This document shows positions 25,957-31,472 of a stretch of DNA of 64,000 nucleotides, in pieces. Position 1 is the first letter of the stretch; each line of letters opens with the position of its first letter. Origin of the DNA: an uncultured delta proteobacterium (GTDB taxonomy: Bacteria > Myxococcota_A > Polyangia > Fen-1088); the NCBI GenBank assembly GCA_963767925.1, contig CAVYGB010000008.1, forward strand, positions 2,720,001-2,784,000. The letters are read 5' to 3'. The notes beneath the pieces are model-generated. The model searched no databases. It saw only the letters and a list, made by a program, of their open reading frames with translations, and was not told the origin of the DNA. Made by a program: the position numbers and the translations under genes.

Positions 25957-28701
25957 ATGGCGTGGACCGCGCGTTCGATGGTGGGAGTAGCGATGCTGCT
26001 GGCGCCGCTCGCGATGGGAATCCCCCGCGCTGCCGCGCAGAGCGGACAGAACGGGTCGATCCTCGGTTACGTGATGGACCAGAGCGGCACGCCCCTCAAG
26101 GGCGTCCGCGTGCTGGCCGGCTCGGCCACCCAGATCGGCGGCACCCGGACGGTCTACACCAACGAGGAGGGCGCCTTCCGCTTCCTGGCCTTGCAGCCGG
26201 GGCGCTTCGAGGTGCGGGCCTCCGCCCCCCGGCTCAAGACCGTGCTGCTCAAGGACGTCCGGGTGGGCATCGGCGCGCCGGCCGAGGTCAACCTGGTGAT
26301 GGAGGTCGAGACCGCGGCCGAGGAGGTGCAGGTCGTCGAGCGGGCCCCCCTCATCAGCACCAGCTCGGCCAGCGTCAAGGAGGTGTTCGACCTCGAAATG
26401 GTCGAGAGCCTGCCTCACGGCAGCCGCGACAGCGTGCACTCGCAGGTGGTCAACGACGTGGCCGGGGGCATCAACGGACGCATCCGGGGCGGGGCCAGCA
26501 ACCAGACCATCTACACCCAGGACGGCTTCGACATCCGGGGGCAGGTGCCGACCCTCAAGGCCTCCGCGGCCTACGAGGTCAACACGGGCGGCTACGGGGT
26601 CGACAACCCCATGGCTTCGGGCGGGTCGATCAACATGGTGACGAAGTCCGGCTCGAACCGCTTCGAGCTCGAGCTCAACGCCACCGCCGACAGCAACCGG
26701 ATGCGCTTCTTCACCGACGGCACCGACGCGGCCGCCCCTACCTACCTCTACTTCCTCAACCCGCTCATCTCGGGGCCCATCATCAAGGACAAGCTCTGGT
26801 TCCACTTCAACACCGAGGTGTATTTCCAGCAGAACGGCCGGGACCCCGACGTCGAGGGCTATCTGCCCGACCCGGCCACCTACCGCAAGTGGGTCCCCAA
26901 GGGCACCCTCAAGGTCACCTGGCAGGTCAGCCCCCGCAACAAGCTGCAGAGCCTCACCAACTTCGACTTCCCCAACGAGTGGAACCGGCGGGGCGAGCTG
27001 GGGGTCGACGCCCTGGCCCAGGAGAGCCGCCGGGGCCAGCGCGTGTTCCAGGGGCTGATCTGGGAGTCGCTGCTGAAGGACGACGTCATCCTCCGCAGCC
27101 AGATCGGCTTCACCTCGGTCCCCATGCACATCTACCCGGCCCGCTGTGACGACGAGCCGGTGGCCTGCGACCACACCCCGGCGGTCATCCAGCGCTTTCC
27201 CAAGCGGCAAGATCTGCAGAACAACAGCAACCACCAGCGCGACGACCTCTACGCCCTGCAGTTCCAGAACCGGATCGACTGGCTGCTGTCGAGCCGGCGC
27301 TTCGGCGAGCACGCCCTGCAGCTCAAGGACAACTTCTACAGCGAGCAGGACATCCGGCGGGTCTCCCGCCCCGGTGACGCCATCATCGAGCTCAACGGAT
27401 CGGTCCCCGACGCCCGAACGACCTACTACTCCAACGATCCCCGCCTCGAGCCCGAGCGCTTCGGCTGGAACGTCACCAGCACGACCATCGCCCGCCACTT
27501 CGCCACCCTGAGCGACTCCTGGCGCCCCAGCCGCTTCCTCACCGTGACGCCCGCCCTGTCGCACGTCTGGGCCACCGGCTCGAACAGCGCCGGCGACCAT
27601 CTGGTCGCCCAGAACACCTTCGCCCCGGCGGCGGCGCTGGCCTGGGACGCCACCCACGACGGGCGCACCGTGGTGCGGGCCAGCTACAACCACTACGTCG
27701 ACCTCGACGTGGGCGCCCTCTCTCGCCACACGGTGGGGGGCCTCACCCAGATGCGCTGCCGCTGGAACGAGGCGACCCAGGCCTTCGACGGGGCCTGCGA
27801 ATACAGCGGCGGCGCCAGCCGCAACACCTTCGGGCTGGCCTGCGGGCCCACCGGGTTCGACGCCCAGGGGCTGCCCTGCCGGGAGGCGCTGAAGATCCCC
27901 CGCACCATCGAATACACCGCGGGGGCGGAGCGGGAGATCGTCGATGGGGTGGCGCTGGGCCTGGACCTGTTTTACCGGACCTTCCGCCACCTCTACGAGA
28001 CGCAGGAGACCAACCGGGTCTGGTCGAGCACCGGCGCCGGCCTGGTGCCCACCGGCGGCTACCGCAACGGCCGGCGCGAGACCATCAGCGACCTCGGCAC
28101 GCCGGCGGCCGCCCGGCGCCTCTACCGGGGCGCCACGCTCGGGCTGACCAAGCGCGAAGGGCGCCTCAAGATGAAGGCCTCCTACACGCTGTCGAAGCTC
28201 GAGGGCAGCGTCCTCGACGGCACCAACAACGCCTGGGGCGACATCGCCCCCCGCGACGTCTTCCTCTACGGGGACCTGGCCGACGATCACCGGCACGAGC
28301 TCAAGGCCAGCACCACCTATCAGATCTCCCCCTGGCTGTCGGCCGGCCTCCGTTACCGCTATTACTCTGGCCGCCCTTACAACCGCCTGTACCGCAACGA
28401 CGTCACCGGCGCCTTCGACCTCTACCGAGCGCGGGTGGGGGTCAACCCCGGCACCAACATCAACGATCCCGGGGACGATCGCGCCCTCCGCTACCCCGAT
28501 CTGCAGGACGTCAACGTGCAACTCCGGGCCAGCCTGCTCCCCTTGATCGGGCAGCGGCTCGACCTCTACGTCGACGTGCTGAACGTGCTGGGCCTCCGCA
28601 CCACCACCCTGGTGGGGCAGGAGGACGGACGCGACTTCGATGTGGTGCGGGGCCGGCTCGAGCCCTTCCGGATCCGGCTGGGCCTCAATTACCGCTATTG
28701 A
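25957..28701 (+). CDS. Oar-like TonB-dependent receptor with carboxypeptidase-regulatory-like N-domain
   Basis: Signal peptide, GYVMDQSGTPLKG, GGSINMVTKSGSN plug motif, terminal RLGLNYRY. Confidence 0.88.
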   Translation: MAWTARSMVGVAMLLAPLAMGIPRAAAQSGQNGSILGYVMDQSGTPLKGVRVLAGSATQIGGTRTVYTNEEGAFRFLALQPGRFEVRASAPRLKTVLLKDVRVGIGAPAEVNLVMEVETAAEEVQVVERAPLISTSSASVKEVFDLEMVESLPHGSRDSVHSQVVNDVAGGINGRIRGGASNQTIYTQDGFDIRGQVPTLKASAAYEVNTGGYGVDNPMASGGSINMVTKSGSNRFELELNATADSNRMRFFTDGTDAAAPTYLYFLNPLISGPIIKDKLWFHFNTEVYFQQNGRDPDVEGYLPDPATYRKWVPKGTLKVTWQVSPRNKLQSLTNFDFPNEWNRRGELGVDALAQESRRGQRVFQGLIWESLLKDDVILRSQIGFTSVPMHIYPARCDDEPVACDHTPAVIQRFPKRQDLQNNSNHQRDDLYALQFQNRIDWLLSSRRFGEHALQLKDNFYSEQDIRRVSRPGDAIIELNGSVPDARTTYYSNDPRLEPERFGWNVTSTTIARHFATLSDSWRPSRFLTVTPALSHVWATGSNSAGDHLVAQNTFAPAAALAWDATHDGRTVVRASYNHYVDLDVGALSRHTVGGLTQMRCRWNEATQAFDGACEYSGGASRNTFGLACGPTGFDAQGLPCREALKIPRTIEYTAGAEREIVDGVALGLDLFYRTFRHLYETQETNRVWSSTGAGLVPTGGYRNGRRETISDLGTPAAARRLYRGATLGLTKREGRLKMKASYTLSKLEGSVLDGTNNAWGDIAPRDVFLYGDLADDHRHELKASTTYQISPWLSAGLRYRYYSGRPYNRLYRNDVTGAFDLYRARVGVNPGTNINDPGDDRALRYPDLQDVNVQLRASLLPLIGQRLDLYVDVLNVLGLRTTTLVGQEDGRDFDVVRGRLEPFRIRLGLNYRY

Positions 28702-28776
28702 CTACTCGTCGAATAGTGGCGAGAACCGCTCCTCGGCGGTGACCCGTTCGGTGAGCGACAGGTGGAGCGAGGCGCG

Positions 28777-28803
28777 GGAACAAAACCCAGGTGGCGGCGT
28801 AAA
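28777..28803 (+). promoter_or_regulatory. ECF-type promoter for the four-helix-bundle gene
   Basis: GGAAC-N16-CGTAAA; GCGCGGGAAC context identical to that at 25862; AAA after GGAAC as at 12455 and 12408. Confidence 0.55.
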
Positions 28804-28819
28804 ACGGACAAAGGTTCAC

Positions 28820-29161
28820 ATGGCCGCCAATCCGCCGGAGCTGGACGACGTCACTCTACGCTTGGGCGACGCTCTTGCGCGGAGAATGCCACGCGGGTAT
28901 GCGACGTAGCAGGACCAGCTTCGGCGCGCGCTGTTGTCGGCATACCTGGGCATCGCCGAGGCATCCAGCCGAACGGGCGCCGACAGGATCTCACGGTTCC
29001 GCACCGCCAGAGGCGAAGCGTCCGAGGCGGCAGCCGCCTTGGAGGCGGTTGCAATCCTGGGACTTGCTCCCGATACCGAGATCGAAGCGGTGATGTCTCT
29101 GCTCGACCGGCTGTGCGCGATGCTCACTCGGCTCGCCGGCATGCACCGCCACCAACCCTGA
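28820..29161 (+). pseudogene. Four-helix-bundle protein (bAvd-like / 23S rRNA IVP family) with in-frame TAG
   Basis: MPRGYAT*QDQLRRALLSAYLGIAEA...RFRTARGEASEAAAALE...LCAMLTRL; TAG at 28907-28909; visibly less GC-biased codons. Confidence 0.8.
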
Positions 29162-29175
29162 TGACTGCCGCGGCT

Positions 29176-29357
29176 GTCGTGGTCGTGCTCGTGTGCGAGC
29201 GCGTGTTCGAGTTCGTGTCCGTGTGTGGTGAGCGTGTTCGGCCCGCGGGCCTCGGCTCGCGTGATTTACGCGCACCGAGAGCCGCCTGGCCGCTCAACGC
29301 TCGCCCCACACGAACTCGAACACGAACAAGCGCTCGACCACGCCCACGAGCACGCGT
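29176..29357. repeat. ~180-nt imperfect inverted repeat built from NNCG(T/A)G hexamers
   Basis: Perfect 17-bp IR 29202-29218/29308-29324; 10-bp IR 29184-29193/29345-29354; 7-bp IR 29196-29202/29330-29336; inner stems closing on GCGTGATTTACGC. Confidence 0.88.
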
Positions 29358-29459
29358 CCCGGCCTCGATACCTCGTTTCGCCCATCGGCGCAAATTCTCC
29401 ACAGGTTTCAGCGGCTGGCTCTTAGTCGGGTCGGGGACGGGGACGGGGCCTCTGTGGTG

Positions 29460-29996
29460 TCAGGGTGTTGGTTTGCTGGAGAAGAGGCGGAAGAGGTATT
29501 CGCCGGCGAGGCCCAGGAGGGGGGGGACGATCAGGGCGGGGAGGAGGCGGGCGGCGGTGAGGGGCCAGCCGAGGAGGGGGGCCTCGTAGGTGAGCGCGCG
29601 GACGGGGCTTAGGAGGGTTTTTGCCGTCACGAGGGCGATCAGGGCGCCGGGGCTGGCGCCCTTGGCGTGGAGGCCGGCGACGAGGGGGAAGAGGAGGTAG
29701 GGGCCGCCTGGGAGCAGGAGGCCGATGGCCCAGCCGGCGAGGAGGCCGCGACCGGGGGCGTCTCCGCCCAGCCAGCGGGTGAGGGTGGCGGCGGGGAAGA
29801 GGACGTCGACCATGCCGGCCAGGAGGAAGCCCAGGGCGATCTCCAGCCAGACCGAGCCGAGCAGGCGGCCCGAGGCGCGCAGGCCCTGCAGCGGGAGGGC
29901 TGGGTCCCGGTAGAAGGCGACGCCGGTGGCGGCGAGGAGGACGGCCAGCAGGATCAGGAGATTGGCGTTCACGCGGCGGCCTCGGACCGGTTTCAT
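29460..29996 (-). CDS. Predicted permease (DUF318/ArsP-like half)
   Basis: Hydrophobic; LTRWLGG, LLLPGGPYLLFPL, YEAPLLG; start may be GTG 29972. Confidence 0.7.
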   Translation of the reverse strand: MKPVRGRRVNANLLILLAVLLAATGVAFYRDPALPLQGLRASGRLLGSVWLEIALGFLLAGMVDVLFPAATLTRWLGGDAPGRGLLAGWAIGLLLPGGPYLLFPLVAGLHAKGASPGALIALVTAKTLLSPVRALTYEAPLLGWPLTAARLLPALIVPPLLGLAGEYLFRLFSSKPTP

Positions 29997-30014
29997 CGTC
30001 TGGCCCGGGAGCCC

Positions 30015-31472
30015 TCAGGGAATGACCCGGGTGGCGCAGCCAAACAGGAGGTCGAGGCGGGTGGCCGCGTCGGCCTTGAAGCGGGTGCAGCTCGCCGGGC
30101 AGATGATCACCTGGCTGGGCGCGCCGCCCGCGGGATCCACGTCGTAATACCAGCCGCCCGTTACCGGGTCGCAGCGGTCGGCGCGCTCGACGTAGAGGAT
30201 GTCCTGGGCCCCGGCGCTTCCGCTGGCCCGCACGTTGACCTTGCCGAAGTCGACGGCGCCGGTCTGGGGCGGGATGGTGAACGCGCAGGGCAAGGCGGCG
30301 CCCCGGATCTGGTTGAGCGTATCGAGGAACCGCCGGGTCAGATCTTCGGTGGGGGTCAACACGATGGCGCTCCCGGTCCCGCCGGCCATGGCCCAGCGGT
30401 TGACCGCGTCGGTGCCGTTGATCTGGTTCGGGGCGAAGATGGCGATGACGTGGGTCGAGATGGCGGGCGTGGCGGCGGCCGCCGCGGCGATCACGCTCGA
30501 GACCATGCCGACCGTGCCCCCGCTGCACCCGAGCGGCAGACCGTCGGTGAAGAGCACCAGGGCGGCGCGCCGCCCCGGGTTGGCGGCCAGGTGCTGGCGC
30601 AGGTGGTTCAGGGTTCCCTCGACCGCCGGCACGGTCGGGGTGTGGCCGATCGGCTCCTTGCCGAGGATGGTGCCGGTGACCGACGCGGCCACGCCGGGCA
30701 GCTCGGCGATCGGCACCGTCAGCCTCTCGTAGTCCGCGCGCGTGCAGCTCCCGGTGCCGATGTTCTTGCAGTACAGGGGGCGGGCGCCGCACAGGCCCCC
30801 GCCGCCGGGGCAGGCCTGCCCGAGCTGGTAGCAGGGGGCCCCGTTGCCCGCGCAGCGCCCCAGGGTGGTGCAGGTCCCGCCGAACGGGCAGACCGGGTCG
30901 TCCGGGTCGCAGGTGCGGTTCTGGTGCACCGGCTGGCCGCTGGCCGTGCAGACGCTCTTGGCCACGCAGTACCCGTCCCCGGTGACCCCGGGCATCGCGC
31001 AGGCGTCGCCGCTGGTGCAAATCAGGTCGTCGCCGGCGAGGGGAAAGAACTGCAGCCCGATGCCCAGCCCGGCCGAGCGGGGATCCTCGAGGAACAACCG
31101 CAGCGCGTTCTGGGTGAGCAGCCACTTGGTCTGGGCGCCTGCCAGCTCGTACATCGAGCCCGATGTGTCGACGAGCAGGACCAAATCGAGCGGTACCTGC
31201 CTGGCCTCGTGGGTCTCGCTGGCGCAGGCCATGGTCGGCGTGAGCGCGCCCGGCGGCCCGCCGTCGGCGGGTGGCCCGGCGTCGGGCAGGGTGAAGCCGG
31301 GATCGGCCGGCGTGGGCGCCCCGCCCGGACCCGGGCCCGCCCCCGCCGCTCCGCCCGGGCCGGCCTGGGCGCCGATGACCATCGGCTTGCCGCAGGCGGC
31401 GCCGGCACAGAAAAGGACGAGCGCCACCACGCTGGCGCGGACCCGGTCATCGCGAGAACGAGGGCTGGCCAT
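30015..31472 (-). CDS. Cys-rich vWA-domain lipoprotein
   Basis: AAC lipobox, MIDAS LVDTSGSM, TPT, LFTDGLP, GWYYD..ICPASC C-terminus. Confidence 0.82.
   Translation of the reverse strand: MASPRSRDDRVRASVVALVLFCAGAACGKPMVIGAQAGPGGAAGAGPGPGGAPTPADPGFTLPDAGPPADGGPPGALTPTMACASETHEARQVPLDLVLLVDTSGSMYELAGAQTKWLLTQNALRLFLEDPRSAGLGIGLQFFPLAGDDLICTSGDACAMPGVTGDGYCVAKSVCTASGQPVHQNRTCDPDDPVCPFGGTCTTLGRCAGNGAPCYQLGQACPGGGGLCGARPLYCKNIGTGSCTRADYERLTVPIAELPGVAASVTGTILGKEPIGHTPTVPAVEGTLNHLRQHLAANPGRRAALVLFTDGLPLGCSGGTVGMVSSVIAAAAAATPAISTHVIAIFAPNQINGTDAVNRWAMAGGTGSAIVLTPTEDLTRRFLDTLNQIRGAALPCAFTIPPQTGAVDFGKVNVRASGSAGAQDILYVERADRCDPVTGGWYYDVDPAGGAPSQVIICPASCTRFKADAATRLDLLFGCATRVIP

Follow-up and report, generated by a model that had tools for sequence, protein, structure and literature searches.

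Proteins of the PF05635 family are common and, to our knowledge, have no known function outside diversity-generating retroelements (DGRs); we likewise know of no explanation, since the early 1990s, for their link to rRNA intervening sequences (IVSs). The available text of PMC10053308 describes PF05635 as resembling Avd and as the commonest family beside DGR reverse transcriptases (RTs), and that of PMC3936711 records 18 PF05635 genes within cas loci and gives GxxRxxxSxxxNxxE as the family motif. According to the accessible part of PMC4990558, 23S rRNA IVSs that bear an open reading frame (ORF) have a long stem cut by RNase III, and the open ideas on IVSs are that they are remnants of transposition or mobile elements with an ORF that aids mobility. 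Here we analyze a PF05635 gene and an adjoining hexamer-built hairpin found between positions 28820 and 29459 of a 64,000-nucleotide stretch of contig CAVYGB010000008.1 from an uncultured delta proteobacterium (the window, by which we mean the whole stretch). An earlier note, made from the letters of this DNA, had taken the two to be a small dispersed module. They are very probably what is left of an insertion sequence (IS) of the IS5 family that, unusually for such an element, has both as conserved cargo beside one of its ends.

Judged by identity and architecture, window positions 28854-29421 are, with a probability of about 0.85, a defunct remnant, cut short on its 5' side, of the right end of a 1599-bp IS5-family IS that carries a gene for a four-helix-bundle (4HB) protein and the hexamer hairpin. 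The genome searched was the window's own, a 9.34-Mb soil Myxococcota assembly of 13 contigs. The hairpin alone, for which a genome-wide BLAST search had been proposed, turned out to be multicopy, with dozens of matches, and four copies, with identities of 99.1-100%, show that the repeat unit reaches about 1.6 kb. When 28500-29700 was compared with the genome by BLAST, homology with the other copies began at 28854 and the repeated part ran to about 29425; many copies share this 3' end and differ at the 5' end. The window fragment is 98.9% identical over 568 nt to one of the full-length copies, which serves as the reference, and the rest of the 64-kb window contains no other piece of the IS. Having only one end and no transposase gene, the window copy is a fragment and no complete element.

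Reference copy, G000:C2:283916-285514: full-length IS, 1599 bp
28820..29161, plus strand: ORF with the translation MAANPPELDDVTLRLGDALARRMPRGYAT*QDQLRR..., interrupted by an in-frame TAG at 28907-28909
28820..28853, plus strand: flank DNA with a chance in-frame ATG, present in no other copy, outside both the element and the family gene
28854..29421, plus strand: 5'-truncated IS5-family copy corresponding to reference positions 1034-1599, without transposase gene and without left end
28854..29161, plus strand: 4HB (PF05635/TIGR02436) pseudogene fragment, without codons 1-21 and part of codon 22
28907..28909, plus strand: TAG nonsense codon, TTG (Leu40) in the other copies (21-copy alignment)
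29176..29354, plus strand: subterminal hexamer-array hairpin, recognized by its arms, its folding and the homologous arrays in relatives
29322..29323, plus strand: group II intron insertion site (between reference positions 1502 and 1503), unoccupied in the window copy
29400..29421, plus strand: right terminal inverted repeat, CACAGGTTTCAGCGGCTGGCTC
29422..29424, plus strand: target triplet TTA at the right end, its left duplicate gone with the left end

The window 4HB gene is doubly broken, by the 5' truncation and by the nonsense mutation TTG>TAG at codon 40. The stretch around this codon reads CGTTGCAGG in the covering copies, CGTTACAGG in copy t and CGTAGCAGG in the window. With X at the stop the ORF matches PF05635 (23S_rRNA_IVP) with an E value of 3.2e-9 and 37.4 bits (cut-off 33.8), and it covers only positions 31-105 of the 106 in the profile. 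As homology with the other copies starts only at 28854, the first 11 codons of the ORF are flank DNA, fused in frame by chance; 28702-28853 has a single 42-nt match elsewhere in the genome. The window copy is unable to move or to make protein, and the locus should be annotated as a pseudogene fragment of an IS rather than as a gene.

The ORF ends in TGA at 29159-29161, and the hexamer array begins at 29176. Its units are those that the earlier note had listed (GTCGTG GTCGTG CTCGTG TGCGAG CGCGTG TTCGAG TTCGTG TCCGTG, mirrored by a C/A-rich array), although the array lies 14 nt beyond the stop and not the 15 nt given there. Period-6 arrays were located by Tandem Repeats Finder at 29177-29240 and 29308-29328. 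The fold-back of about 180 nt described in the note was recovered, with a G/T-rich (NNCGWG)n arm at 29178-29235 and a C/A-rich arm at 29297-29354, each of 58 nt and 81% complementary to one another, and with a perfect 17-bp hairpin core in which 29202-29218 is paired with 29308-29324. Folded as plus-strand RNA it reaches z -7.91 (minimum free energy -122.5 kcal/mol), and none of 200 shuffles was as stable; the z values as DNA and as minus-strand RNA are -7.72 and -9.23. No Rfam match was found in 28000-30500 at E<=1, there is no T-run after the window hairpin, and a promoter and terminator scan of the whole IS gave 0 promoter-like sites and nothing 3' of the hairpin.

In the intact IS the order is left repeat, a minus-strand two-frame transposase, the 4HB gene, which runs divergently on the plus strand from reference position 970, the hairpin (1358-1534) and the right repeat. 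The left inverted repeat, GAGTGAGCCGCTGAAACCTGTG, is the inverse of the right repeat; both are 22 nt long and start with GAG, 20 of the 22 positions agree, and the right repeat is identical in 13 of the 15 two-ended copies, the remaining two having one substitution. OrfA matches PF13340 (E 4.6e-23) and the OrfB frame matches DDE_Tnp_1 (PF01609; E 6e-17), and the IS5-family model NF033580, of 258 positions, spans the two: OrfA covers positions 4-105 and OrfB covers 102-257 (133 bits, cut-off 110). The OrfA and OrfB frames overlap at CCAAAAGGGGGG, which has a conserved A4G6 slippery run. The same TAA or TTA triplet is found on both sides in 12 of the 15 two-ended copies, within CTWAG. The transposase model, the terminal repeats and the target duplication all place the intact copies in the IS5 family, presumably in the IS1031/IS427-like subgroup.

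The 31 BLAST groups correspond to 30 elements: four of full length, 11 with two ends and internal deletions, 11 having a right end without a left end (the window copy included), one with a left end only and three internal pieces. The module is thus dispersed, in about 30 copies and fragments, and the window copy is non-autonomous, as the earlier note had it, but it is not free-standing, its vehicle being the IS. Transposase-less derivatives are mobilized in trans. Four 609-bp copies share a common deletion (399-1389) and have differing flanks and duplications; as the same deletion is found at different sites, these copies moved in trans after the deletion had occurred.

An intact 4HB frame from Met1 was found in only two of the 19 examined copies that cover part of the gene, namely a truncated IS (C2:1712970-1713927) and a copy on C9 with one extra codon. 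A 2-nt frameshifting deletion in the gene is common to all four full-length ISs, and because these four frameshifted elements sit at different sites, the 4HB protein is dispensable in cis for transposition. Among the remaining copies there is one further frameshift, the 3' anchor is missing from another copy, and the others are cut on the 5' side.

Parts of the stretch were present in 20 of the 24 listed sequencing runs (14 studies), the best being soil and root metagenomes; one of the runs is recorded as RNA and another is guessed to be RNA, both with small shares. From runs X19 and X20 came a handful of short contigs and a chimeric one of 197 nt. In run X3, a soil metagenome, a 1709-nt contig contains an entire IS of about 97.5% identity (compared with L010:506-2104), and where the full-length copies have the 2-nt deletion it has a GC insertion, which restores the 4HB frame.

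The intact form of the 4HB protein has 123 residues (L012:839-1207) and matches both PF05635 (E 3.1e-10, 40.6 bits) and TIGR02436 (E 1.7e-11, 44.3 bits, cut-off 24). An AlphaFold2 model built on a 29-sequence alignment consists of four helices with a mean predicted local distance difference test score (pLDDT) of 91.3. Foldseek matched the model to Xcc0516 (2GSC) with template modeling (TM) scores of 0.78-0.88 and 30-31% identity; the other fold matches were BT_0352 (2RLD) and the Avd chains of 8UB7 and 4DWL, with TM scores of 0.73-0.84 (0.73 and 0.83 for the 4DWL chains) at 12-13% identity. In a profile search of PDB sequences the sole match was 2GSC (E 1.3e-5). The bAvd-like four-helix bundle of the earlier note therefore stands by its profile score, and the predicted structure supports the Avd likeness at the level of the fold. 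The protein has a pI of 9.47 with 17 Arg and 0 Lys, and Arg occupies nine of the 37 invariant alignment columns. Going by what is known of Avd and Xcc0516 in the family (PMC10053308, PMC4990558), it would be expected to bind nucleic acid. In the IS-borne clade the family motif takes the form QxxRxxxSxxxGxxE (residues 44-58 of P0001), with R47, S51 and E58 kept, Gln44 in place of the first Gly and a nearly invariant Gly55 at the Asn position. The ratio of nonsynonymous to synonymous substitution (dN/dS) relative to the G000 protein is 0.07-0.20, with dS saturated, and the 4HB protein is under purifying selection.

Searches with the intact protein gave 454 homologues, of which the best 120 have identities of at least 69%; nearly all of these are called 'four helix bundle protein' or are nameless, and some of their annotated ORFs run on into the arrays and end in TDTDTD or RERSRER. 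The related loci comprise 14 from species genomes, mostly Myxococcales or 'delta' metagenome-assembled genomes (MAGs), and the best 80 of 192 metagenome matches; 93 of them have a tblastn match to the 4HB protein. The earlier note had asked whether arrays accompany homologous genes, and they do: of 70 evaluable loci, 45 have a run of at least three in-phase hexamers in the 300 nt that follow the gene, compared with 0 of 70 shuffles and one of 41 far-downstream windows. The arm sequences vary between subgroups and stay complementary (GCGAGCGCG/CGCGCTCGC versus GCGAGCCCG/CGGGCTCGC). The 4HB frame is uninterrupted in 73 of the 93 loci, including all 13 with a full transposase and 13 of the 14 transposase-less ones.

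The transposase that accompanies the module is not always the same. In 43 of the 93 related loci a divergent 470-aa transposase lies upstream of the 4HB gene, on the opposite strand in 43 of 43 and at full length in 13; the ISNCY_1 and IS5_1 models match it over their full length, below cut-off. Elements with this transposase are about 2.2-2.3 kb long and have repeats like CTAGAGCTTGTCGGGAAATT, with CTAG duplications where both ends were found. OrfA and OrfB of the present IS had no tblastn match in the 14 genome loci. In 14 of the related loci, none of which has a transposase match, complementary arrays flank the gene with scores of 26-107 (controls, <=15), and in 12 of these 14 there are six to nine G-type hexamers upstream and four to 16 C-type hexamers downstream, which puts the ORF in the loop of the stem. 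At L015, between clpP and clpX, the arms are 53 nt long, 92% complementary and 476 nt apart. At L065 an inverted second copy of the entire hairpin-bearing end is present, in an element that has IS-type repeats as its boundaries. A third association is seen at L020:396-4908 (genome G034, contig C14), where each of two tandem units of a 4HB gene, 55-58% identical to the IS-borne one, has an IS1182-family transposase (299 bits, cut-off 270) immediately downstream in the same orientation; hexamer arrays are absent there, and a short perfect GC hairpin takes their place.

A plain relative of the IS was found in genome G016, related at the family level, in which there are five matches, all to the transposase part only; the one examined is an 886-bp IS with similar repeats, a TAA duplication and the same A4G6 motif. 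This 886-bp IS aligns to reference positions 1-865, and its final 45 nt align to 1555-1599, so that the intervening stretch of roughly 700 bp, with the 4HB gene and the hairpin, represents an insertion some tens of bases in from the right end. The inserted module separates the transposase start from the right repeat and has the short motif GCAAATT.TC on both sides. This arrangement may have arisen by recombination in a motif shared with the other IS type.

In other copies of the IS the right arm of the hairpin has been entered by a 2029-nt group II intron in the 4HB-sense orientation, identified by RF02005 (118 bits), RF00029 (42 bits) and a 413-aa RVT_1 protein. At the hairpin site it is complete in two copies and 5'-truncated in a third, and two more fragments lie beside IS pieces. 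The IS hairpin seems to be a homing site of this intron, copies and fragments of which are as follows.

G000:C2:1846951-1848979 (L144:1352-3380): intron copy or fragment
C2:1094618-1092594: intron copy or fragment
C2:1150388-1148914: intron copy or fragment
C10:486260-485763: intron copy or fragment
C10:1683607-1683408: intron copy or fragment

Mobility in these elements comes from a DDE transposase acting on the terminal repeats, and in two transposase lineages the conserved module has a constant place beside one of the ends. In the present IS the two-frame DDE transposase, joined at the A4G6 slippery run, inserts the element into CTWAG with a 3-bp TWA duplication. The 4HB protein would be a trans-acting and dispensable accessory, an oligomer of which might bind the hexamer arrays beside the end, as DNA or as RNA, and so modulate the use of the end or the expression of the transposase. 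Such an accessory role, with the 4HB protein binding the arrays, is possible and is put forward tentatively. A wider proposal is that the 4HB gene and hexamer stem form a portable accessory module of DDE transposons, swapped among at least two and perhaps three transposase lineages and under purifying selection even without a transposase, that an Avd-fold oligomer binds the arrays, and that the transposase-less form, an ORF inside a long stem with short terminal repeats, would be the long-postulated mobile progenitor of ORF-bearing 23S rRNA IVSs; taken as a whole this is doubtful. The three lineages meant are the IS5_3 type described here, the 470-aa IS5_1/ISNCY-like type of many soil and peat metagenomes, and the IS1182 family, which has the gene alone without arrays. 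Several observations weigh against our account. The left junction of the window fragment shows no recognizable mechanism, and with two of 19 frames intact the 4HB protein is under no visible selection in this genome. Taking the best 80 of the 192 metagenome matches favours intact genes among the related loci. Hexamer runs are lacking in 25 of the 70 loci, and a strict Smith-Waterman test of self-complementarity, which overlooks imperfect stems that do pair in RNAfold, was positive for a long hairpin or a flanking stem in just 42 of 77; the loci without these features are mostly more distant homologues, the IS1182-linked ones included. The hairpin folds equally as DNA, plus-strand RNA and minus-strand RNA. 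Finally, of the folding and covariation that the earlier note wanted checked, the fold is strong but the covariation is thin, with double changes in three of 66 pairs (one hairpin subgroup of eight sequences). Counts of G·U and A·C mismatches, which might separate sense RNA from antisense RNA or DNA, are 124 and 198, but they come from arms that are compositionally skewed and from alignments that crossed loops.

Other explanations were considered for the same data. The stem could act at the RNA level as an IVS-like insulator, either a terminator or an RNase III site, with the 4HB protein standing outside transposition; it would keep transcripts started outside the element from running into the transposase or the end, and would lessen polar damage after insertion into operons. 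This suits the hairpin's place between the right end and the transposase start, its folding on both strands, and the 12 of 14 transposase-less relatives in which the G-type arm upstream and the C-type arm downstream hold the whole ORF in the loop, an architecture like that of the RNase III-cut 23S rRNA IVSs in the accessible part of PMC4990558; the 4HB-sense orientation of the intron in the hairpin adds a weak hint of transcription. However, neither the T-run nor any terminator expected on the 3' side was seen, and an insulator leaves unexplained both the purifying selection on the protein and its retention in 13 of 14 transposase-less elements, which makes this a doubtful alternative. Purifying selection would be accounted for if the 4HB gene were cargo that benefits the host or fights other elements, with the IS as vehicle and the hairpin as terminator or stabilizer. 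The PF05635 genes reported in CRISPR-cas loci and next to DGR RTs (available text of PMC3936711 and PMC10053308) agree with this, as do more distant paralogues beside housekeeping or defence-type genes such as GmrSD. Cargo is nevertheless rather improbable, given that the same clade is tied to three transposase types, always in the same position next to an end, and that in this genome decay of the gene goes unchecked in an IS that is still active.

A free-standing protein-plus-target module with no transposon involved would fit the lack of an adjacent transposase in the window and at L015, L016 and L017, but the window copy is homologous to part of a complete IS, which has a transposase, inverted repeats and target duplications, and the transposase-less relatives L065 and L027 are bounded by IS-type inverted repeats; we regard it as very unlikely. 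The similarity of the fold to Avd, for all its 12-13% identity, is what might suggest an avd gene that has lost its RT, that is, a DGR remnant. None of the seven RVT_1 matches in the genome is on contig C8, in agreement with the earlier note's statement that no RT is nearby; three of the seven adjoin other copies of this IS and all three are group II intron proteins (RF02005, RF00029). There is no pair of template and variable repeats, the longest direct repeat in 28700-29500 being 10 nt, and the closest structure is Xcc0516 and not Avd, so a DGR remnant is practically out of the question. An rRNA IVS was rejected as well: 0 of 124 related loci match the genome's 23S rRNA, the 23S gene contains no piece of the IS, the window copy has an outer-membrane receptor gene on one side and a permease gene on the other, and both arms of the window stem are downstream of the ORF instead of enclosing it. 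The earlier note was thus right that the locus is neither a DGR nor an IVS, and our preferred reading remains a decayed IS fragment with a putative accessory module.

The upstream neighbour of the fragment is an outer-membrane beta-barrel receptor gene, and downstream there are an ArsP_1-type permease gene and a gene that matches VWA weakly. Genome G001, of the same genus, has the receptor gene at 80% identity as far as its stop, after which comes a different gene, and the permease side is on a separate contig with another neighbour (receptor C747/L148, permease C490/L151; window 28702-29459 compared). Because the two genes are on different contigs with different neighbours, the fragment sits at a synteny breakpoint, and for that reason its left half was probably lost in a rearrangement. 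The comparison with relatives for an empty site thus failed in G001, where none can be demonstrated between the receptor and permease genes, the flanks being on different contigs. The gene looked compositionally distinct in the earlier note, and the IS fragment is indeed lower in G+C, but the difference is modest (66.7% versus 71.4% for the window). The second short array of that note, TCGGGG ACGGGG ACGGGG, is exactly at 29431-29448, although this is 10 nt outside the repeated element, and the flanks of the other IS copies are unrelated to it. Short tandem arrays are also found just outside element ends at other loci: beside the GGGGAC of the window (29431-29448) there are GGACTC, CCCGAGG and a 12-18-nt unit (L014 ~480-560, L015 2790-2825 and L021 ~1320-1450). 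They may reflect a target preference or chance.

Six further PF05635 genes lie in the window's genome outside this IS, five of them as 132-aa open frames with full-length profile matches.

C2:1553689-1554000: PF05635 gene
C2:1079094-1079405: PF05635 gene
C2:1806139-1806450: PF05635 gene
C8:639704-640015: PF05635 gene
C6:354918-355226: PF05635 gene
C2:1150388-1150681: PF05635 gene adjoining a 5'-truncated group II intron

Another repeat, at least 2.5 kb long and present in no fewer than six copies in genome G034 (L045, L048, L051, L054, L056, L058 and L060-L063), has internal repeats and two divergently oriented PF05635 genes of more distant relationship; an IS66 transposase gene adjoins one of the copies. 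Within the 2.2-2.3-kb IS type, the right repeat of one element can be followed at once by the left repeat of a second, with the CTAG shared between them (L083:2870-2900, L105:2290-2320, L099:2250-2280), which looks like abutting or tandem insertions. Close homologues (70-75% identity) were also seen on short contigs binned elsewhere, at L014 in a Thermoanaerobaculia MAG and at L019 in an Actinomycetota MAG, and could represent horizontal spread or mis-binning of a repeat.

The pairing of gene and hairpin is real and meaningful, the window itself holding only a decayed fragment of it. We found no paper linking PF05635 or S23p genes with IS transposases, and a search for IS5-family elements with accessory genes or subterminal stem-loops listed nothing relevant. 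The IS5-family type is itself known; what is new is a conserved module of 4HB gene and hexamer stem inside bona fide, recently active ISs. ISs with known ends, target sites and non-autonomous derivatives give the PF05635 family a concrete vehicle, and the hexamer arrays give its proteins a testable partner. The finding would also add a conserved gene other than the transposase, an accessory one, to IS5-type elements.

In eukaryotic transposons, element-encoded proteins bind subterminal repeat arrays, as with the hexamers of Ac and TNPA of En/Spm. The likeness to these is one of logic only, short repeats in two orientations near the ends together with a small element-encoded protein; there is no relation in sequence or fold, and binding in the present IS is putative. 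The bAvd of DGRs (4DWL, 8UB7) shares the four-helix-bundle fold, a basic surface and the standing of an accessory protein of a mobile element, but the identity is 12-13%, and here the partner is a DDE transposase, with neither an RT nor template and variable repeats. Xcc0516 of Xanthomonas campestris, a pentamer of four-helix bundles, is the best match in both sequence and fold; the available text of PMC10053308 and PMC4990558 describes no mobile-element context for Xcc0516. The 23S rRNA IVSs with an S23p/PF05635 ORF (Leptospira, Coxiella) have the same protein family and a long stem, and the placing of the ORF inside a stem-loop recurs in 12 of the 14 transposase-less relatives; the elements described here differ in lying outside rRNA and, in those examined, in being bounded by IS-type repeats. 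Closest are the IS5-family ISs with a two-frame transposase (NF033580) and a 3-bp TNA duplication, which are alike in the two-frame DDE transposase, the short GAG repeats, the TWA duplication at CTWAG, the many copies and the deletion derivatives resembling miniature inverted-repeat transposable elements. What sets the present IS apart from these is a further 700 bp or so, with the 4HB gene and hexamer hairpin, which nearly doubles the 886-bp plain form.

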